A stretch of 43,754 nucleotides of DNA, taken from the IMG/VR virus record IMGVR_UViG_3300029478_000005. One strand, 5' to 3'. This stretch comes from a virus. The notes beneath the pieces were generated by a model. That model did not search any database. It was given only the letters and a program-made list of their open reading frames with translations, and had not been told where the DNA came from. Positions 3,115 to 33,312 of the stretch are shown here, piece after piece; the first letter of the stretch is position 1, and each line of letters opens with the position of its first letter. The position numbers and the translations under genes are program-made.

Positions 3115-4230
3115 ATGGCAAGAGCAAAAGCGCGGGCTGATGGGCTGATTGAACGAACAAAAACCTATGACGGCAAGCGGGTACACTTTTACGGAAAGAC
3201 CGCGAAAGAGGTCGCCGCGAAGATTGACGAATACGAACGCCAGCGGGAAGCGGTGAAAGAGAACGGCCCGCTGTTTGAGGATGTGGCCGGTGAATGGTGG
3301 GAGACCCATTCAAAAAATATCAAGACCGGCGCGGAAAGAGCCTACAAGGGCAGCTACAAGGCCGCGCTGGAAGAGTTCAGCGGGTACAGAATGAAAGAGA
3401 TAACCCCTGCTGCGGTGTCGCTGTGGGGCGAGAAATTCAAGGCCGCAGGCTATGCAGGGAAGACGGCAAGCAACGCCCGGAGCGTGTTGTCTTGTGTATT
3501 CAAGTTTTGGTGCGTCCGGGATGGCGAAACATACAACCCGGTGACAGTTACCGATCTGCCGCGCGGCATGAAAAAAGCAGAGCGCGAACCGCCGACAGAG
3601 GAACAGCTACAAATCGTCAAGGCACACCCGGAGGGGTTCGGGCTGTGTGCCTGGCTGTTCATGTACACCGGCTGCCGACTGGGTGAGGTGCTGGCGCTGC
3701 AATGGCGGGATGTGGATTTTGAAAAAAACAGAATCAGCATATCCAAAGAAGTGGCGTGGATAAACAATCAGCCGGTTGTGCAAGCGCCAAAAACCGCAAA
3801 CGGAGTGCGCGCTGTGCCGCTGCTGTCGCCGCTGCGGGGCGTGCTAGAGCCGTTACGCGGGGCAGATAGTGAGTATATACTCGGAGGGGAAAGGCCGCTG
3901 ACAGGCTGCGCATACAAGCGCAGATGGGCATATTACTGCAAGGATGTGGGCATGGCGCACTATGTGCTGCACACACGAAGAAATAAGCACAGAGACAAAG
4001 AGTACACAACGACGATTAAGGACTGGATTGCCGACGTAACGGCGCACCAGTTCCGGCACGAGTACGCCTCGATGCTGTATGAAGCAGGAATAGGCGAGCT
4101 GGAAGCACAACGCCTTATGGGGCACGCTGACATTACGACGACACGGCGGGTATATACACACATACGGGAACGCCAGCTAGATACAGCAGGAGAGGCACTA
4201 GAAAAATTTATAAGCGATAAAACGATATAA
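3115..4230 (+). CDS. int: Tyrosine recombinase / phage integrase (371 aa)
   Basis: C-terminal catalytic signature TAHQFRHEYAS...LMGHADITTTRRVYTH (R..H-x-x-R..H..Y). AGGAGGG RBS. Adjacent attP. Confidence 0.92.
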   Translation: MARAKARADGLIERTKTYDGKRVHFYGKTAKEVAAKIDEYERQREAVKENGPLFEDVAGEWWETHSKNIKTGAERAYKGSYKAALEEFSGYRMKEITPAAVSLWGEKFKAAGYAGKTASNARSVLSCVFKFWCVRDGETYNPVTVTDLPRGMKKAEREPPTEEQLQIVKAHPEGFGLCAWLFMYTGCRLGEVLALQWRDVDFEKNRISISKEVAWINNQPVVQAPKTANGVRAVPLLSPLRGVLEPLRGADSEYILGGERPLTGCAYKRRWAYYCKDVGMAHYVLHTRRNKHRDKEYTTTIKDWIADVTAHQFRHEYASMLYEAGIGELEAQRLMGHADITTTRRVYTHIRERQLDTAGEALEKFISDKTI

Positions 4231-4268: not shown

Positions 4269-4323
4269 ACGACACTTTTACGACATCTTGAAAAAATAAA
4301 AGCGTTTACGACGGTTTTACGAC
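4265..4323 (+). repeat. attP arm-type direct repeats, TTT(T)ACGAC x4
   Basis: Copies at 4265, 4276, 4305 and 4315, between int and the core. Confidence 0.7.
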
Positions 4324-10683: not shown

Positions 10684-10740
10684 TTGCCCTCATCCGGCCC
10701 TGCGGGGCCACCTTCCCCCTCGGGGGAAGGCAGGGGAATT
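10684..10740 (+). repeat. Structured intergenic repeat, copy 1 (two hairpins)
   Basis: GCCCTCATCC + GGCCC-TGCG-GGGCC + A + CCTTCCCC-CTCG-GGGGAAGG. Its 33 nt TTTGCCCTCATCCGGCCCTGCGGGGCCACCTTC (starting 10683, one base left of this feature) are identical to copy 2. Confidence 0.8.
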
Positions 10741-20801: not shown

Positions 20802-21068
20802 ATGGCTATTAAGAGTAAAGCACGGCACGATTTGACCCTGCGCAGTATCAAGCGAGAGATTGCAGCAGGGCGCGATGTTGCCTTTTGGCTGGACAAGGCG
20901 TACACGCACTACGACAACGGCCTGCTGACCGAAGATGACATTGCCGAGGTAGAGACGCTGGCGCAAGAATACTACGATGCGGTGGATGCGAGAGAGAGCG
21001 CAGACGAGGTTACGGAGACGCCGGATGTGCCGGAGGTTGACGGCGCTGAAAATACCACCGACGAATGA
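20802..21068 (+). CDS. Small acidic protein (88 aa), XkdX-like position after the fibre
   Basis: AAGGAG RBS before ATG 20802. W..KAYTHYDNGLLTEDDI motif. Confidence 0.4.
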   Translation: MAIKSKARHDLTLRSIKREIAAGRDVAFWLDKAYTHYDNGLLTEDDIAEVETLAQEYYDAVDARESADEVTETPDVPEVDGAENTTDE

Positions 21069-22330
21069 TAGGAAGTGATACCATGATTTTTAACTGGAGA
21101 AATCTCGTGAAGTACCCGTACAGCTGCTACGGTTACACGCGCGGCGGTGGCAAGACTTGGCACGGCGGCATTGACGTTTGCGGGTTGGATGACGACAAAA
21201 TCCGCATGCCCGGCTACAACGGCAAGAGCATTGCAGGAACCGTTGTTACAGCCCGCATCGTGACGAACAAGAGCAATAAGACATGGGAATGGGGCTATTA
21301 TATCTGCGTGAAGCTGGACGCAAACCAGACCCCGGATGCAGTGAATTACCTGTATTTTTGCCACTGCTCCAAGTTGCTTGCGAGCGTAGGGCAGAAAGTA
21401 AAGACCGGCGATGTGCTGGCGGTTGTCGGACAGACTGGCAACGCCGCAGGCACATGGACGCACTGCCACTTTGAAGTGCGAGCCACTGCCACGAGCAAGG
21501 GCCTTGACCCGACTGCGTATGCAGGCATACCCAACAAGGCGGGCACATACGGCGACCAGCCTGCGCAGACAAGTGGCGAAGAAGTGCTGATTGATGTGTC
21601 CCACCATCAGGGTGCTATTGACTGGGCAAAGGTTCAATACCGTGCCATTGTTCGCATCGGTTATCGCGGCTACGGCACTGGAAAACTGATGAAGGACGAG
21701 CAGTACGATGCCAACCTTGCAGGGGCGAAAGCAAACGGAAAGCTGTTTGGCTTTTACTTCTTCTCGCAGGCCATCACGGTGGAAGAAGCCCGCGAGGAAG
21801 CAGACTTCTGCGCAAGCCTTGCCCCGTCAGGCTATCCATTGTTCTTCGACAGCGAATGGGGACACACAACCAAGACCGGCGTTTACGATGGCCGCGCCGA
21901 CAACCTGACGAAAGACCAGCGCACGGCAATTGCAATGGCGTTCTGTGAGGGAGCCAAAGCGCACGGATTCACGGCTGGCATTTATACTTTTACAGCCTTT
22001 GCAACCGCAAACATCGACTACGCCTACCTGTGTGAAGATTACATCGGCTGGCTGGCCGACACGCGCACGAACTACGACAAGACGCTGCCGCGATACATCC
22101 ACCAGTACAGCCAGACCGCAGAGGGCGGCGTGCCGGGTATCACTGGCGTGGTTGATTTGAACCATCTGGTCAAAGCCATGCCGGAGAAGGACAAGCCCAC
22201 CGATAACACCGGAGAGCTACAAGTGATTACCGTCGGGCCGGTGTCGCAGGGGGACGCGGATGCGGTGTATCTGTTGTGCAAGCAGCGCGGATTGACGGAT
22301 GCAGGGCTGTACAAATCTGAATGGGTCTGA
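21065..22330 (+). CDS. Bifunctional endolysin: M23 peptidase + GH25 muramidase (421 aa; alternative start 21083)
   Basis: M23: WHGGIDV...HCHFEV. GH25: IDVSHHQGAIDWAKV...GFYFFSQA. Followed by holins. Confidence 0.88.
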   Translation: MIGSDTMIFNWRNLVKYPYSCYGYTRGGGKTWHGGIDVCGLDDDKIRMPGYNGKSIAGTVVTARIVTNKSNKTWEWGYYICVKLDANQTPDAVNYLYFCHCSKLLASVGQKVKTGDVLAVVGQTGNAAGTWTHCHFEVRATATSKGLDPTAYAGIPNKAGTYGDQPAQTSGEEVLIDVSHHQGAIDWAKVQYRAIVRIGYRGYGTGKLMKDEQYDANLAGAKANGKLFGFYFFSQAITVEEAREEADFCASLAPSGYPLFFDSEWGHTTKTGVYDGRADNLTKDQRTAIAMAFCEGAKAHGFTAGIYTFTAFATANIDYAYLCEDYIGWLADTRTNYDKTLPRYIHQYSQTAEGGVPGITGVVDLNHLVKAMPEKDKPTDNTGELQVITVGPVSQGDADAVYLLCKQRGLTDAGLYKSEWV

Positions 22331-29800: not shown

Positions 29801-30210
29801 TCACCGCCTACATGCAGGCTTATAGTGCTGTGGCAAAGACACTGGACGATGGGCAGACCCCGGACAAGTTTACAGTCGGTTACGGTATGCAGAAATACGG
29901 CCTGAGCGGAGACGACTTTGCAAGGGCGTATCTGGCAGCGTACTACAAGAAGGACAAGAACGGCAAGTACCCGGAAAAGGGCGGCACGTATGCCGATAAG
30001 GCCGGTGCAGAGATTTACCAGAGCTACGGCGCAGATGCGCTGCGCGACTGGGTAAACTACCGCGCTACCATTCCCGACACGAACGGCAACGGCAAAGTCG
30101 ATAAAGGCGAGGCTGTAGCGCGTTTGAAGGAAATGAACCTGACAAACGAGATGCGGCGCGCGTATCTGGCGAAAACTAACAAGCAGTGGGGCAAGAAAAA
30201 CCCGTTTTGA
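23851..30210 (+). CDS. Giant 2119-aa multidomain protein (polyvalent / ejected-virion-protein-like)
   Basis: GGAGG RBS and a single uninterrupted ORF. K/A/Q-rich N-terminus; Gly-rich hydrophobic segment; GNAT-like segment (aa ~778-873); conserved LSMLGNTRTHARNVLGN region; C-terminal EF-hand-like loop DTNGNGKVDKGE. Confidence 0.6.
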   Translation: MAKVNGREDALLNAYLNRYQTAQASNVSTGRSTTRKAQQQGSAIMNATDKTLPVLHNSYTETLNNIVQGASLENSLNNDILNRQMKLAQAKFDAANDLYKQQQKAQQYAAKKAAKAAKSRGKSSGKGGSTTGTGSDTESAASLDALFGEDSAASTADTARNKGGNYDPKRTNAERNASARARYDDSKQEKSDIKYRAQQKAERTAQLLKDKQTAANAGANKDKPIGNSYAERQSAAQPAKSRAVTRGGKVSGSSYAAAGSAPSAAETQAAKDKRNDYKSRQEDIAAALKKLQSDANYRAELAAPGRKLTSAEVAAVNQYEKSTKNTGFSGLKRVFETAANKESLSQEDYAKKTAAMNAELNQNSALRGKAQMNGAGQTAQAFTAGLYDSVPFLTKSVDKLTDIANETGAELPQLSNAIEGAKSYDPLAAAAGTLVGKGMQYKLFNTAMAGTPLAQTMGKAGNAVVGQAQKIPVLGDIFGAGAGDALGRILTDTTADLALDTLPSLVSDVSEGKSAGEIAGNTAKNIVANVAMNALPEVGGTLLNSLKGTAVDAAQDALKQADNAVQDVQSVASARNIVQPETNGTTGLAAQIQQMNTPDAANRSALNTLDELRGQVNLNGAQEKEAEQLRRAVLQRQQEIGDEAKLALKNTDSLPIDATTDTGYNNINNIGGVTNEAVQGRNQYDGTRSEGILQGSSDGTPQSGQRLAVGAESGEYLPANRVLVAEHLNQRPSVYNDSTRAIAEQAGAGAFDFRNSDDAPETFAQALATAKANNVNGAAVDGHTAEEISNIVNNGGKTFLVPDGTAGGAVEANGNLTCVFKDAANNSTPGAGSSIALAAVNNGATKGDCYGRALVNMYSKAGLEPVARIPYAYGYNDAMDAQVRKQIADGIINKEPDVYALKLRDGYDFEKAAAEFNTAHRYTQAELDALPVYDDYDEMLAYRDSLLKAPSADAGDAAFLHPTEAASETVPGLNIVENAQSVAKLNGSESVPAHAVGAESTQYDRREVVNQDYANQRAMGGKIDADEAAAAGIGQQTHTVYSRAEGKDTAKQDFDLLVQQNGDILSAGRTVADELARKSADGNFDASDVYRGYYAADQLQNMMNSYEKGSADAQLVQAQIENLNRAVSAGQSKNAQALSAGRWAQIDEYTPIRKFEQITQRKVNDFAKTRDGKQLESLASDVVEMAKSGPQDEEFTAFLKAQGVDVGDNPLNAQINDLAKRIKRMADTKGIKATDEQAKSAAANILAGGNADDVFNAMARKTLGIENLSQEDYDYVKNAFAEMADMPDSKARYEKEMDAYKRLTKYMPAKTFGDKMESIRYLSMLGNTRTHARNVLGNVSMGVVTRAKDNVSGVMQLALPKDQRTKAVGTTLTADGRKMVDLAKEYGQNKMYSVLYNDGKFNAESGLRAAQDTFTSKPGKVIQKAADINSALLEKEDNIFLTSAFGNAMASQLKARGYDSSVFTATDAKSKQALVDAAATALRDAKEATFHEDNFLSTALKNYQNDIKGHGVGGKILWAVGEGVLPFKKTPLNIAKNAMEYNIVGGTVEAAYRYATGASSADVIDAAAKGLTGTALMGIGGILAYNGLLNGSRSGDDRADAFNEMTGKQEYSINIPGKGTYTIDWASPASVPLLMGAEIANEWQNGGLSVTKFLDAARKIGNPILDTTMLQGLNDTLDSVSYADSDDKLATLLGGTLSSYAQQYVPTAFGQIARTIDPMRRSTYGGGDSKTERNTNYAIRKAENKIPGLSMNNEPYIDQWGREEASLDGTDDSAEGMFLRGAYNMLSPGYVSAENITPVDEYLQGLYGSTNDSHVYPEKASSKITVDSDDYYMTPEEKTEYAKTSGQTAYNLIDELRQNSMFLQLPEDQQSALVQDAYKVAKTAGGVAAVGDSVSGVNAKEYEAYRDGGAEGFSQYVLMKNATDLARDEKRDTSGNDDAALNTVETWNTLYSQFGDDAVSNFVDSTDDDSTVHNISDLAGDKAVTAYMQAYSAVAKTLDDGQTPDKFTVGYGMQKYGLSGDDFARAYLAAYYKKDKNGKYPEKGGTYADKAGAEIYQSYGADALRDWVNYRATIPDTNGNGKVDKGEAVARLKEMNLTNEMRRAYLAKTNKQWGKKNPF

Positions 30211-30218
30211 GGTGCTGT

Positions 30219-30407
30219 ATGAAGTTTGATTTTTGCATGAACCGGGCGGAGTATGACGAGCTTGTATTTAGCCTGACGGACGATGAGCGGGAAGTGCTGG
30301 ATATGCGGCGGCACGGGCGGCGCAATGCTGAGATCGCAGCCGAGATGAACTGCTGTGAGAGGACGGTAAACCGGCATGTGAGAAGCATTAAGAATAAGAT
30401 GCGGTGA
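30219..30407 (+). CDS. GerE/LuxR-type (sigma-70 region-4-like) HTH protein (62 aa)
   Basis: LTDDEREVLDMRRHGRRNAEIAAEMNCCERTVNRHVRSIKNKM. GAGGTG RBS. Confidence 0.7.
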   Translation: MKFDFCMNRAEYDELVFSLTDDEREVLDMRRHGRRNAEIAAEMNCCERTVNRHVRSIKNKMR

Positions 30408-30428
30408 GAGGGCTGTACAGGATAAGCC

Positions 30429-30475
30429 GCCCCTCATCCGCCGCTGCGGCGGCACCTTCCCCCGAGGGGGAAGGC
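30429..30475 (+). repeat. Structured intergenic repeat, copy 3
   Basis: CCCTCATCC + GCCGC-TGCG-GCGGC + A + CCTTCCCC-CGAG-GGGGAAGG. Hairpin 1 differs from copies 1 and 2 by two compensatory base-pair swaps. Confidence 0.8.
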
Positions 30476-30484
30476 AAAAGTATA

Positions 30485-30522
30485 GCGGGCAGTCACTTTT
30501 TGAGCGGCTGCCCGCTTTTTTT
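30485..30522 (+). terminator. Intrinsic terminator
   Basis: 8-bp stem GCGGGCAG/CTGCCCGC, 15-nt loop, T7. Confidence 0.7.
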
Positions 30523-30618
30523 GTTTTGGCGCAAAATTGACGTGATACTGTCGTGGGAATGGCCTACGGCGCGGGATGGATTGTAGTACAATGGAACCAG
30601 AAAGACGAGGTGAGCGGG

Positions 30619-30975
30619 ATGTACTGGAACAACTACGGTATGCAGACCCCATACAGTAACCCCTATGGGCAGACGATGCAGCAGGCGTTACAGCCGTGCA
30701 GCATCACGAAGGTGAGCGGCGAGAACGGCGCAAAGGCATTTGGAATGGCACCGAATTCCAGCGCACTGCTGCTGGACGAGACCGCGCCGCTGGTGTGGCT
30801 GAAAACAACAGATGGGGCAGGGTATCCCACTTTGACACCCTACACCATTACCCCGTACCAGGCCGCGCCGCCGGTGGACGTAAACAGCCTGGAAAACCGT
30901 GTGAAACGATTGGAGGAGATGCTCAATGACAAATCCGATTCTACAGGCAATGGGGAAAAGCGCAATGCCAAATAG
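30619..30975 (+). CDS. Hypothetical protein with Y/Q/P-rich N-terminus (118 aa)
   Basis: GAGGTG RBS before ATG 30619. MYWNNYGMQTPYSNPYGQTMQQ... Confidence 0.5.
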   Translation: MYWNNYGMQTPYSNPYGQTMQQALQPCSITKVSGENGAKAFGMAPNSSALLLDETAPLVWLKTTDGAGYPTLTPYTITPYQAAPPVDVNSLENRVKRLEEMLNDKSDSTGNGEKRNAK

Positions 30976-31138
30976 CCCGATGAACGTGGTGCAGCAGTTT
31001 ATGCAGTTCAAACAGCAGATGCAGGGGAAAGACCCGCAGAAAATCGTGGAGCAGATGCTTGCTGATGGGCAAATGAGCCAGCAGCAGTTTGAGCAGCTGA
31101 AACAGCAGGCGGAACAGTTCAAGGGCATATTTTACTGA
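30926..31138 (+). CDS. Small Q-rich helical protein (70 aa)
   Basis: GGAGGAG RBS. 50-nt overlap with the previous gene. Confidence 0.5.
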   Translation: MTNPILQAMGKSAMPNSPMNVVQQFMQFKQQMQGKDPQKIVEQMLADGQMSQQQFEQLKQQAEQFKGIFY

Positions 31139-31194
31139 TATAAGCCGGGTCGACACGGTTTATAAATACAAATCTTACGAAAGGATTGGATACT

Positions 31195-31821
31195 ATGGAC
31201 AATGGGTACTCTTTGAGCGACCTGCGCGCGGCGACTGGTGACGGCAACGGCTTCGGTGGAAACGGCGCATGGTGGATCGTGATTTTGTTCCTGTTCTGCT
31301 TCATGGGCGGCGGCTTCTGGGGCAACCGGCAGGGCGAGTTCGGCCAGTATGCCACCGCTGCCAGCCAGCAGGAAATTTTGTTCGGCCAGCACTTTGGGCA
31401 GCTCAACGACCGTTTGACCAATCTGGGCAACGGCGTCTGCAATCTCGGCTTCGAGATGCAGGGCGGCATTGGTCAGCTTGGCAAGGAAGTGGCGCTGGGC
31501 CAGAGCAATCTGAACCAGACCGTAATGCAGACCGGCAACAATATCCAGCAGCAGATTGCAAGTTGCTGCTGCGAGAACCGGCTTGCGACGGCAAACCTGT
31601 CCGCACAGATGGACCGCCAGACCTGCGACATCACGAATGCAATCCGCGCCGAAGGCGAGCAGACCCGCGCGCTGATGCAGGCCAACGAGATTCAGCAGCT
31701 GCGCGACAAGGTAAACGCCTTGCAGATGGACAACCGCATGTACGGCGTGGTGCGTTACCCCAACGGCTACACCTACACGGCAGGCCCTAGCCCGTTCTGT
31801 GGCTGCGGCGGCTGCGCATAA
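31195..31821 (+). CDS. Membrane protein: Gly-rich/hydrophobic N-terminus, coiled coil, Cys clusters (208 aa)
   Basis: GNGFGGNGAWWIVILFLFCFMGGGFWG (YjcZ-like flavour), CCCENR, C-terminal FCGCGGCA. Confidence 0.5.
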   Translation: MDNGYSLSDLRAATGDGNGFGGNGAWWIVILFLFCFMGGGFWGNRQGEFGQYATAASQQEILFGQHFGQLNDRLTNLGNGVCNLGFEMQGGIGQLGKEVALGQSNLNQTVMQTGNNIQQQIASCCCENRLATANLSAQMDRQTCDITNAIRAEGEQTRALMQANEIQQLRDKVNALQMDNRMYGVVRYPNGYTYTAGPSPFCGCGGCA

Positions 31822-31830
31822 TCGCTGTAA

Positions 31831-31870
31831 CAGCGCAAGCCCGCACGGCAAGCGCTGTGCGGGCTTTTTT
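31831..31870 (+). terminator. Intrinsic terminator
   Basis: Stem AGCCCGCAC/GTGCGGGCT extended by CAGCGC/GCGCTG, followed by T6. Confidence 0.7.
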
Positions 31871-31890
31871 GAGGAAAGGAGTAAAGTTTT

Positions 31891-32331
31891 ATGGCTTGCA
31901 ATGAAAGGCTGAAAAATCCCCATTTTAAGAGCGCACAGAACGCCTACAACAACACGGCACAGACGATGGCCGCGACTGCAACTCCCGTCAATGTACTGGG
32001 CATCCTGAACACAGATACCGGGTGCAGCATCGACACGAACGCGGGCGGATTTATCATCCGACACAGTGGGTTATACCGCATCAGCTATGACGTGACGTTT
32101 ACGGCGGGCGCTGCCGGCACGGAAGTGCTGCAAGGCCTGAAAGACACGGCAGCGCTGCCCTGCATGACGGCAAGCGCGACGGTGGCCGCGAACGAGGTTT
32201 CCACTTTCCATGCGGAAACTGTCGTGTACATCCCTGTATGCTGCGGCAGCACGCCGACGATCAGCGCCGTGCTGAGCGGCGTGGCCGGAACCGTGACCCA
32301 CGTCTGCGCCAGCGTTGTGAAGCTGGCATGA
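31891..32331 (+). CDS. C1q/TNF-like (BclA C-terminal-domain-like) jelly-roll protein (146 aa), putative
   Basis: GGFIIRHSGLYRISYDVTF pattern (F.I...G.Y.I.Y.V). AAGGAG RBS. Confidence 0.45.
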   Translation: MACNERLKNPHFKSAQNAYNNTAQTMAATATPVNVLGILNTDTGCSIDTNAGGFIIRHSGLYRISYDVTFTAGAAGTEVLQGLKDTAALPCMTASATVAANEVSTFHAETVVYIPVCCGSTPTISAVLSGVAGTVTHVCASVVKLA

Positions 32332-32341
32332 GGTGCGCGAG

Positions 32342-32812
32342 ATGGAGAAGATCAAGGCGTACAAGGAGAAGCTGGAACACGAGATTGACGAGTTTGTGGA
32401 AAACTATCCCGTGAATGAGCGCACCGTCGCGGCACTGACCTCGATGCTGGAATGCTGGGAGCATGTTAAAGAGTGCGCTAAGTGCAGCGGCAGCGGGGAT
32501 GAAGAGCTTACCAAAGAAGATGCCATGAGCTGGATGTACAACATGAAGAACGAGGACGGCAGCTTTGGGGCACACTGGGATTTGGAACAGACGCGGCCCT
32601 ATATGGAGCCGCGCGGTGTGACCTGCGAGCTTTGGAAGTGGGCCGCTGTGATGAACATGATGTACAGCGACTACTGCAAGGCGGCACGCAAGAACAGCGT
32701 GGACAGACCGGAGTTTTACGCAGACCTTGCGGCGGCGTTTTTGGATGACAAGGACGCGCCGGAGGATAAGGCCGGGCGGTATTACCACAATATTGCGGCA
32801 GTGCAGGAATAA
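32342..32812 (+). CDS. Hypothetical protein (156 aa), recurrent Firmicutes phage/plasmid family
   Basis: GAGGTG RBS. NMKNEDGSFGAHWDLEQT...MNMMYSDY motif. Confidence 0.5.
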   Translation: MEKIKAYKEKLEHEIDEFVENYPVNERTVAALTSMLECWEHVKECAKCSGSGDEELTKEDAMSWMYNMKNEDGSFGAHWDLEQTRPYMEPRGVTCELWKWAAVMNMMYSDYCKAARKNSVDRPEFYADLAAAFLDDKDAPEDKAGRYYHNIAAVQE

Positions 32813-32860
32813 AAAATCAGCCCGCAGCTGACGAGGATTTCTCGACAGTTGCGGGCTTTG
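32811..32860. terminator. Convergent-operon terminator (strong for the minus strand, weak for +)
   Basis: 12-bp stem AGCCCGCAGCTG/CAGTTGCGGGCT. The T6 run is on the minus-strand side. Confidence 0.7.
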
Positions 32861-32865
32861 CTGTG

Positions 32866-33312
32866 TCAGGGGAGAATATCAAGTTCCCAGCCGGAGGGAA
32901 GCTCTAAGAGAAACAGGCCGGTGCGTTCCTGGGCGCGTACCCAGAAATCGGAACGGTTCAGTTCTTTTGCTGTATCGCGGCGTGATTTACCCTCAAAGTA
33001 AATGGCGATCAGGACAGATTGCTGGTCGGAGTTTAGGGGTTTCATAGCTTCGTTTCGCTTGGAATAGGCCGTGTTCATCTCGGCGCGGGCACGGCAGTAC
33101 CGGGCATAGGCTTTGTCGTACCGCTCTGCCAGGCGGGCCACCGGGTCAGAGCGGGTGTTGCCTTTGGGCATACCATCGGCAGGGTGAGCCGACATGGCGG
33201 CGTTGGATTCATAGAATTTATCGCGGGCCTCGATGAAGGCTTTCTGATAGACGGCGTATTTTTCCATCCATTTTTGACGCTGGGTGTTGCCGCAGGGTAC
33301 ATTATTTTCCAT
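32866..33312 (-). CDS. Sigma-70 region-4-like late-gene regulator (ArpU/RinA-like position), 148 aa
   Basis: LNSDQQSVLIAIYFEGKSRRDTAKELNRSDFWV. Last gene of the early operon. Confidence 0.5.
   Translation of the reverse strand: MENNVPCGNTQRQKWMEKYAVYQKAFIEARDKFYESNAAMSAHPADGMPKGNTRSDPVARLAERYDKAYARYCRARAEMNTAYSKRNEAMKPLNSDQQSVLIAIYFEGKSRRDTAKELNRSDFWVRAQERTGLFLLELPSGWELDILP

Follow-up and report, generated by a model that had tools for sequence, protein, structure and literature searches.

A cassette of six small genes, here named A to F, closes the late strand in the genome of a temperate podovirus-like phage with a gut Clostridia host. The genome (IMG/VR record IMGVR_UViG_3300029478_000005) was analysed as one stretch of 43,754 nucleotides (nt), referred to as the window, and the feature studied extends from 30219 to 32857. 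The six genes form one conserved collinear unit, carried by hundreds of gut viruses that differ in body plan and host, and mobile between phages with unrelated virion modules. The first of them encodes a small helix-turn-helix (HTH) protein, A, which is probably the regulator of the cassette itself, and the phased −35-like repeats that lie between the first terminator (T1) and B and co-vary with A are new here. No described system matches the cassette; its component families have been catalogued, and the linked, regulated unit is new here. The family name DUF7841, to which F belongs, occurs in no paper of the searched literature, and neither the cassette nor its regulation is described there.

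Gene order is collinear, (A)-B-C-D-E-(F), in all 129 loci with enough flanking sequence, and no permutation occurs. In IMG/VR, 62 loci have sufficient flanking DNA; all of them contain B, C and D, 59 contain E and 43 contain F, and a small custom hidden Markov model detected A in 16. The order is kept in species-representative genomes with D identity down to 25%, and B-C-D-E-F is kept in an AT-rich lineage represented by contigs of 56-164 kb, in which D is 33-34% identical. The exact D protein of the window is found in 323 blocks of public assemblies and has the same neighbours in all eight places shown. The check suggested by an earlier, sequence-only reading of this DNA, namely whether the five genes after A travel together, thus has a positive outcome. 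Genes at the end of a late operon, or in the gap between lysis genes and attR, are usually dismissed as hypothetical miscellany; here they are a single unit.

Carriers of the cassette are not confined to one capsid or tail type, being both podovirus-like and SPP1-like. In SPP1-like siphovirus prophages the cassette follows the endolysin, the holin and a GerE-type HTH gene and is the last element before host genes or the integrase. The virion genes of these carriers appear unrelated to the podovirus-like module of the window phage, and tblastn found in them no homologue of the giant gene that precedes A in the window. Such sharing across different virion modules speaks against a set of ordinary virion genes. 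Hosts were assigned from long contigs (Dysosmobacter, 202 kb; Acutalibacter; Blautia), cultured phages and record annotations; metagenome-assembled genome labels on phage-sized contigs ("Bacteroidaceae" and others) were treated as unreliable.

Morons and lysogenic-conversion cassettes, such as lambda bor and lom or the toxin genes beside attR in streptococcal prophages, are likewise terminator-insulated, provided with their own promoter, located 3' of lysis genes and portable, and the siphovirus relatives of the present cassette are also attR-adjacent. The cassette differs from them in comprising five or six genes whose order stays the same despite very large divergence and of which two or more cross phyla, in occurring in virulent phages as well, and in having a late lytic gene as its presumed regulator.

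Some cassettes contain further genes. An extra helical protein of 175-189 residues (...HDQFAEYYDFLNLHGFKRCHEYH...), which looks ferritin-like by eye and has no Pfam match, stands after the E position in L030 (7160-7729) and L172 (8419-8946). A small HExxH metallopeptidase ends the cassette in AT-rich and Bacteroidota lineages (L082, 7840-8154; L135, 9472-9867; L120, 7755-8210; L175, 8434-8898); it has a weak Peptidase_M78 match and, in one case, the depositor label PolyVal, and none is present in the window.

Protein A and the control region upstream of B

The sequence-only reading had placed a GerE/LuxR HTH protein of 62 residues after the giant gene, and profile searches agree. Protein A scores above the Pfam cut-off both for GerE (PF00196; 47.8 bits, cut-off 23.5, E = 1.1e-12, residues 18-62) and for Sigma70_r4_2 (30.2 bits, cut-off 25.7, E = 3.5e-7), and it also matches sigma-factor families among the PHROGs. 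By these matches, A is classed as a stand-alone HTH of the GerE/LuxR, sigma-70-region-4 type encoded by the last gene of the late operon. Its gene always lies about 10 nt behind the last late or lysis gene, and a small open reading frame (ORF) of sigma-region-4-like type occupies the A position in other lineages.

T1, a strong terminator, ends the late operon and is kept in relatives. Between it and B lie, in order, four direct repeats and a −10-like box without a proper −35, followed by the units B-C-D and E-F with terminator T2 between them. The four repeats resemble −35 boxes and their spacing corresponds to one helical turn; the pattern TTGNCGT-N4-TTGNCGT, with one mismatch allowed, is matched nowhere else in the window. 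The box TACAAT, which a simple promoter scan missed and which has no good −35 at 17 nt, lies 21 nt past the last repeat in the window, a distance of 21-22 nt in the window and in L088. Many lineages have a similar box (TACAAT, TATAAT or TATGAT) at 25-35 nt 5' of B.

Phased repeats upstream of B recur in other lineages with other sequences: TTGGCG in three copies (L088), TGACGG in four (L077), TGACCA in three (L093), TGACGA in five (L102), TTGGCAGAT in three (L110) and TTACC in two in a C. perfringens phage. Across lineages the repeat co-varies with the recognition helix of A, the helix ERTVNRHV being paired with TTGGCG/TGACGT, VRTVERRI with TGACGG, ARTVHRII with TTGGCAGAT and QATITRTV with TGACGA. 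At least three phased, GC-containing copies are present in 15 of the 64 upstream regions that remain after collapsing, as against 7.2% of control windows from the same loci (p = 4e-5), and the count is a conservative one. Taken together, the direct repeats, the putative −35-less promoter and the co-variation with the A helix suggest that A is probably the cassette's own regulator. The terminator, the phased operator-like repeats and the −10 box before B also support the earlier proposal that the genes are regulated independently of the late operon. Pairs of A proteins and phased repeats would supply an orthogonal set of small activators and operators for Clostridia.

Several known systems resemble this arrangement. 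The nearest are the stand-alone GerE/LuxR HTH, sigma-70 region 4 and small phage late-gene activators, of which phi29 p4 and Mu Mor/C are examples; A is little more than the HTH itself. Sigma region 4 recognises the −35 hexamer, and the gene for A precedes a candidate promoter that has a −10 and no −35 and is itself preceded by repeats resembling that hexamer. GerE differs in that it works in the mother cell on spore-coat genes, whereas A has no sporulation link. A was rejected as a GerE proper, that is, a sporulation regulator, because phages of Bacteroidota, which do not sporulate, carry D and DUF7841, and archaea-assigned viruses carry D. The usual targets of LuxR-type proteins are inverted repeats, bound by dimers, whereas the candidate sites of A are three to five direct repeats with 11-nt spacing.

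The spacer of 126 nt between A and B is strongly structured as a whole (−66.5 kcal/mol, z = −5.3), and an Rfam scan of 30000-33000 (E <= 1) gave no credible match for it. The repeat noted after A in the sequence-only reading corresponds to a GC-rich hairpin element, CCTTCCCCCGAGGGGGAAGG (flank CCCCTCATCCG...), which has a second copy in the window at 10711-10730. Stretches of 50 nt about 90% identical to it also turn up in unrelated faecal contigs, and one of those contigs appears to be bacterial. In kind, the element is reminiscent of an intergenic repeat of the repetitive extragenic palindrome (REP) type belonging to the host lineage, and it might serve as a clue to the host.

Downstream, a hairpin followed by a T-run is found in 51 of 100 distinct D-E spacers with differing stem sequences. 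This pattern points to conserved attenuation, by which E and F would be expressed below the level of B, C and D.

Two side observations concern the same elements. A two-copy match to TTGNCGT with 11-nt spacing (ATGTCGTAAAAGTGTCGT, two mismatches) lies just past the integrase on the minus strand (4269-4286); ten two-mismatch matches are present in the window against 4.6 expected, so this one could be due to chance. In L130, L134, L140, L143, L150, L159, L162 and L165, the gene directly 5' of B is not the HTH gene and encodes a protein of about 126 residues with invariant Cys18, His98 and Asp109 (GDCxVRA...H..A/V...D.WDSG), which looks like a small papain-like peptidase and has no Pfam or PDB match.

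Proteins B to F and their spread beyond Clostridia

Protein D is the most distinctive member of the set. Its sole strongly hydrophobic stretch is AWWIVILFLFCFMGGGF (Kyte-Doolittle 2.07), which is flanked by Gly runs and is, by hydropathy, the only transmembrane (TM)-grade segment among the cassette proteins; D is thus predicted to be a single-pass membrane protein. A CCC triplet stands at residues 124-126 and the protein ends in the tail FCGCGGCA. In the alignment the CCC triplet, one C-terminal Pro and two further Cys are invariant, and an N-terminal peptide, YSLSDLxAxTG, and a tail, VVRYPxGYxYxAGxSPFCGC, are conserved. The AlphaFold model, of low confidence with a predicted local distance difference test (pLDDT) score of 59, starts with a short helix, which is followed by the TM helix (25-36) and by a continuous helix of about 120 residues (59-182). 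The family comprises 925 clusters at 50% identity (E <= 1e-3) and 2666 clusters at 90% identity. Hydropathy and sequence agree with the earlier description of a membrane protein of 208 residues with a CCC motif and an FCGCGGCA tail. Its N-terminus had also been called YjcZ-like; no Pfam or NCBIfam match to that family was obtained at E <= 1, and the resemblance is compositional only.

D matches phrog_16490 (E = 7.9e-15); searches of Pfam and PHROG gave no holin or spanin family match, and NCBIfam gave no informative matches. The Rz i-spanin, T4 holin T, PBSX XhlA and phi29 p16.7 are type II membrane proteins of phage lysis and replication with coiled-coil domains, and D likewise combines one N-terminal TM segment with a long helical Cys-containing domain; its gene is near the lysis genes. 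It differs from these four proteins in having no sequence or profile similarity to them. A spanin role does not apply to D, the hosts of the window's lineage being without an outer membrane, and the window phage has separate holin and XhlA-like candidates besides D.

The D gene is also a mosaic. Two alternative C-terminal halves are found, CCCENRLATANL...TCDIT... and CCCTTQRAID...FAALEKSQLE... (for example L049, 6001-6594, and L052, 6001-6600), and in the L049 protein an N-terminal half of the window type is combined with the C-terminal half of the alternative type; both types end in the VVRYP...PFCGC tail. At the N-terminus (31195-31260), the sequence (Y/M)SLSD(L/I)AAVTG resembles a leader of the double-glycine type, the consensus of which is LSxxELxxIxGG, with the second Gly usually missing.

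Protein E is assigned by sequence profile to the C1q/TNF-type jelly-roll proteins. Its profile matches solved members of this superfamily in the PDB at E values from 2e-4 to 0.3, among them cerebellin (2e-4), BclA (0.002), the PRD1 P5 spike (0.025) and TNFSF18, in line with the C1q/BclA C-terminal domain (CTD)-like fold proposed from sequence alone. The Pfam BclA_C (PF18573) match of E is below threshold (29.8 bits against a cut-off of 38; E = 6.3e-7), and 11 of 21 members of the E family match this model, so that the similarity is one at superfamily level. E shares its domain size with the BclA-CTD, C1q and TNF jelly rolls and the PRD1 P5 spike head. It differs from BclA and P5 in being a bare domain without a collagen-like or coiled-coil shaft, targeting leader or signal peptide, and from the BclA/C1q/TNF group in its conserved CC(C) motif. 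The sequence of E has no collagen GXX repeats and no exosporium-targeting N-terminus. Since the collagen repeats are absent, E is not a BclA-type glycoprotein, and that candidate was rejected on the missing GXX run and the missing targeting motif. A search of the literature on BclA_C with phage and on C1q-like proteins with crAss found nothing useful.

B consists of a disordered N-terminus rich in Y, Q and P, a small conserved domain (VNGENGA...APNS...D...W...DGAGY in the alignment), a short coiled coil and a charged tail; it matches phrog_21718 (E = 2.9e-11) and has no Pfam relative. C is a Q-rich helical protein that matches phrog_22984 (E = 1.1e-18) and shows weak similarity to SHOCT. Both proteins are as first read from their ORFs (118 residues, Y/Q/P-rich; 70 residues, Q-rich and helical), and the overlap between the two genes also exists in other lineages, where it measures 8-65 nt. 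F had been listed as a protein of 156 residues without assignment; the size stands, and the protein now has a family, DUF7841 (PF25223), matched at 81.5 bits against a cut-off of 25.2 (E = 7.2e-23). It contains an N-terminal helical hairpin followed by the DUF7841 domain, with the conserved motifs NxDGTxGxHW..EQT and MNMMYSDY. The AlphaFold model of F is helical and confident (pLDDT 88), and Foldseek found no fold match for it in the PDB (best E = 1.6); in BFVD the model matches DUF7841 proteins only, many of them crAss-like. The Foldseek matches of F to sigma-factor chains are weak (TM-score about 0.2) and were judged noise. Such matches may explain the label "RNA polymerase sigma factor/ubiquitin-like" that depositors gave to crAss-like DUF7841 proteins.

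Sequence and profile searches yielded no significant PDB relative for B, C, D or F. The families phrog_21718, phrog_22984 and phrog_16490 are all classed as of unknown function and not as structural. Together with DUF7841 they are catalogue entries of which B, C, D and F are members; the entries differ from the cassette in being single proteins without function, not a linked regulated unit. Neither a signal peptide nor a hydrophobic segment is present in B, C, E or F, which should therefore be cytoplasmic.

Beyond Clostridia, phage contigs of the Prevotella/Phocaeicola type contain a homologue of D that follows the genes for holin, lysin and spanin. Further homologues belong to C3_41T2LP, a cultured phage of B. 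uniformis, and to numerous crAss-like phages, a group that ranks with the most abundant viruses of the human gut. The Bacteroidota homologues keep the hallmarks of the family, that is, the Gly-flanked TM segment, QLAxCCCENR and a PVPAY...CGCGC tail, and in Bacteroidota and crAss-like genomes D has a DUF7841 gene as a near neighbour, only a few genes away (Pfam, E = 1.3e-24). Virulent siphophages of C. perfringens carry D as well, with an antirepressor gene on one side and recombination genes on the other, and D is also present in viruses assigned by their depositors to Methanomassiliicoccales, in which a homologue was annotated as phrog_16490 by the depositors. The phages phiCP39O and phiCP26F are not among the D matches. 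Cultured carriers of versions of the cassette include the C. perfringens phages vB_CpeS-17DYC and HMD-PC1 and one B. uniformis phage.

Role of the cassette and alternative explanations

A scheme that accommodates these observations is that of a separately switched accessory cassette, activated very late by A, whose products form a membrane-anchored complex in the terminal phase of infection. As a whole it seems plausible to us, somewhat short of probable, and its functional part is much weaker. A would be made together with the late proteins, bind the −35-like repeats on one face of the helix and recruit RNA polymerase to the −35-less promoter, so that the cassette would come on after the late genes as a "very late" unit. 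A leaky T2 would yield more B-C-D than E-F. D would reside in the cytoplasmic membrane with its helical stalk and Cys-rich tail on the cytoplasmic side, where E (a trimer by analogy), B, C and F, all lacking signal peptides, would join it. The resulting stalk-and-knob complex of D, E, B, C and F on the membrane would act when the membrane is disrupted or shortly afterwards, with a part in egress or in the control of lysis. With low confidence, the function is thus placed in the terminal lytic phase, as egress or lysis control, and not in conversion of the lysogen or spore surface.

The late timing in this scheme is suggested by the place of A in the late operon and by a feature of the crAss-like phage cr53_1 (L174, 2551-9667). 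Stop-codon recoding concentrates in-frame TAG codons in late genes. In cr53_1, genes contain 0-9 in-frame TAG codons each and use TAA or TGA as stops; the TAG-bearing genes include the reverse transcriptase (RT), holin, spanin-like and virion genes as well as the D-like gene and two genes after it, so that TAG is shared with lysis and virion genes. The DUF7841 gene of this phage (gp67) has no in-frame TAG.

Several points weigh against the scheme. An ordinary endolysin and holin candidates are present in these phages in any case, which leaves no gap among the lysis functions. In the siphoviruses the cassette sits beside attR, the classic location of genes for lysogenic conversion, and in the phages of C. 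perfringens and B. uniformis it stands among early and recombination genes. Outside Clostridia, homology is demonstrable for D and DUF7841 only, and the Bacteroidota proteins in the B and E positions show no profile-profile similarity to B and E. The D model is of low confidence (pLDDT 59), and the topology of D is a prediction; a stalk outside the cell would break the model of a cytoplasmic complex. The window's own phased repeats are degenerate, keeping 5-7 of 7 positions; the test for enrichment is a crude one, the lineages are only partly independent of one another, and the case for activation by A, as against repression, would be drawn solely from the missing −35.

A more general proposal is that tailed viruses of the anaerobic gut possess in this cassette an as yet undescribed functional module, common to phages of Clostridia and of Bacteroidota, crAss-like ones included, with D occurring also in viruses assigned to methanogenic archaea. 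The module would be a "very late" programme with its own sigma-region-4-like activator, a Cys/Tyr/Gly-rich membrane-anchored assembly of a D stalk, a C1q-like knob and partners that contain low-complexity regions, and a job outside the textbook repertoire; we offer it tentatively and regard it as doubtful in this full form. That job could be a matrix formed at lysis, perhaps cross-linked by oxidation, which protects or retains the progeny, or it could be a novel form of egress control. Being so widely conserved, and having a regulator and operator of its own, the cassette probably serves a general and undescribed step in the life cycle of gut phages.

Among the alternatives, an accessory virion appendage would make D the shaft and E the knob of an optional, late-added fibre or decoration that includes B and serves, for example, in gut adhesion, the hydrophobic segment of D being used for insertion or anchoring. 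The cassette does lie on the late strand and adjoins structural and lysis genes, C1q/TNF-like knobs on coiled-coil or collagen shafts are common as viral fibres, and the profile of E matches PRD1 P5. Among the homologues of D, those from crAss-like and Bacteroides phages bear the depositor labels "spike protein/glycoprotein" or "outer capsid protein/viral fiber", and the TAG-recoded class is common to D-like and virion genes. We nevertheless consider such an appendage unlikely: the tail and virion genes of the carriers differ and, with no giant-gene homologue by tblastn, no shared attachment partner is evident; D has a true TM-grade segment between Gly runs; a terminator and an operator of its own set the cassette apart from the structural genes; the C. 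perfringens and B. uniformis copies are among early and recombination genes; and the PHROGs place the families of B, C and D under unknown function rather than structural. The sequence-only reading had recognised no virion or lysis component, and no holin or spanin match was obtained.

Superinfection exclusion, or another membrane-level defence in which a D complex blocks incoming phage DNA in lysogens or infected cells, appears improbable as well. It would fit a membrane protein encoded by a portable accessory module with its own transcription unit in a temperate phage (integrase, CI-like repressor), and the site between lysis genes and attR in siphoviruses is a frequent one for exclusion and conversion genes. 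Such genes are normally single, narrow in distribution and expressed early or from the prophage, however, whereas this is a unit of five or six genes with a late presumed regulator, conserved across phyla although routes of entry differ between Gram-positive, Gram-negative and archaeal envelopes. The defence role suggested earlier also fares poorly in PADLOC (PADLOC-DB 2.0), which identified no defence component; A matches only as a generic HTH, and the one other match is of the coiled coil of D to ZorA (E = 0.002, 14 bits).

The first candidate role in the sequence-only reading was lysogenic conversion, with a GerE-like regulator controlling proteins of spore-coat or exosporium type that alter the surface of the cell or spore. 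In its favour are the stand-alone GerE-type HTH, the resemblance of E to the BclA C-terminal domain, the Tyr-, Cys- and Gly-rich composition, the Clostridia hosts, a PDB match to the "exosporium protein" 7r1m at E = 0.37 and a weak Pfam Collagen_mid match of D (E = 0.0065). D and DUF7841 nevertheless occur in phages of non-sporulating Bacteroidota, crAss-like phages included, and D in archaea-assigned viruses and virulent C. perfringens phages. B, C, E and F have no export signal, E has neither collagen repeats nor an exosporium-targeting N-terminus and scores under the Pfam cut-off for BclA_C, and no YjcZ-family match was obtained. The distribution of D and DUF7841, together with the missing export signals, makes a spore-surface role very unlikely, and lysogenic conversion in general has become doubtful, as the presumed regulator A is encoded by the last late lytic gene and the crAss-like copies bear in-frame TAG codons, like the lysis and virion genes near them.

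Finally, a released membrane-active product, in which D is a precursor whose (Y/M)SLSD(L/I)AAVTG leader is cut by a dedicated peptidase to give a bacteriocin-like or signalling product, seems highly improbable: the conserved N-terminal motif does resemble the LSxxELxxIxGG consensus, the segment in D is Gly/Trp-rich and hydrophobic, the 126-residue protein with invariant Cys, His and Asp lies directly 5' of B in several lineages and an HExxH peptidase follows the cassette in others, yet in the window no peptidase gene adjoins the cassette, the second Gly of the leader is usually absent and the distance to the next GG varies, the 126-residue protein has no Pfam or PDB peptidase match, D is far larger than known leader-dependent peptides and NCBIfam gave no bacteriocin-leader match.

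Genomic setting and feature coordinates

The positions of the cassette features and of the late-strand genes around them are collected in the table below. The six reading frames, the overlap of B and C, the CCC and FCGCGGCA motifs and the terminators had all been placed correctly from the sequence alone. Each of the six starts is preceded by a ribosome-binding site of the GGAGG type, read directly from the sequence, and homologues were found for all six proteins, so that the ORFs exceed chance.

Table 1. Features of the cassette and of the late strand in the window
Feature	Position	Strand	Remarks
Terminase	8997		late strand
Major head protein	11667		late strand, after terminase
Portal	12937		late strand; followed by tail-fibre-like genes
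Lysin (M23+GH25)	21065-22330		late strand
Q/N/A-rich ORF, 304 aa	22769-23683		after lysis genes, before giant gene
Giant gene, 2119 aa	23851-30210		just before A; no Pfam match
A	30219-30407	+	62 aa; starts 8 nt past the stop of the 2119-aa gene
REP-like hairpin element	30437-30474	+	GC-rich, CCTTCCCCCGAGGGGGAAGG; by folding
Terminator T1	30484-30528	+	hairpin 30484-30516 with 11-bp GC-rich stem, then UUUUUUUGUUUU
Four direct repeats	30526-30565	+	TTGGCGC, TTGACGT, CTGTCGT, ATGGCCT; 11-nt spacing; candidate operator for A
−10-like box TACAAT	30587-30592	+	no good −35 at 17 nt; putative cassette promoter
B	30619-30975	+	118 aa
C	30926-31138	+	70 aa; 50-nt overlap with B
D	31195-31821	+	208 aa
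Terminator T2	31837-31872	+	between D and E; hairpin 31837-31866 and U-run, z = −3.2
E	31891-32331	+	146 aa
F	32342-32812	+	156 aa
Terminator T3	32819-32857	.	bidirectional; between late/cassette strand and convergent early operon; z = −4.9

The temperate character of the phage is marked by a CI-type repressor (1514-1912) and a tyrosine integrase (3115-4230), and the window contains no tRNA genes. An XhlA-like ORF of 83 residues and a holin candidate of 60 residues with two TM segments lie 3' of the lysin; relatives carry Phage_holin_5_2. The lysin is swapped among close relatives, the window, L006 and L008 having Peptidase_M23+GH25 and other relatives Amidase_2+Glucosaminidase, and within the window's own lineage the genes 3' of the swapped lysin, the cassette included, are unchanged. 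The giant gene varies in length from 1807 to 2119 residues among relatives and comes as one of two versions, with identities of about 72% and about 95-100%; it is absent from the siphoviruses that carry the cassette. On the opposite side of T3, the first gene of the convergent operon (32866-33312, minus strand) encodes a protein of 148 residues with sub-threshold Pfam matches to sigma-70 region 4 and weak PHROG matches to "transcriptional activator" and "Q-like antiterminator" families, and it may be the main late activator of the phage, distinct from A.

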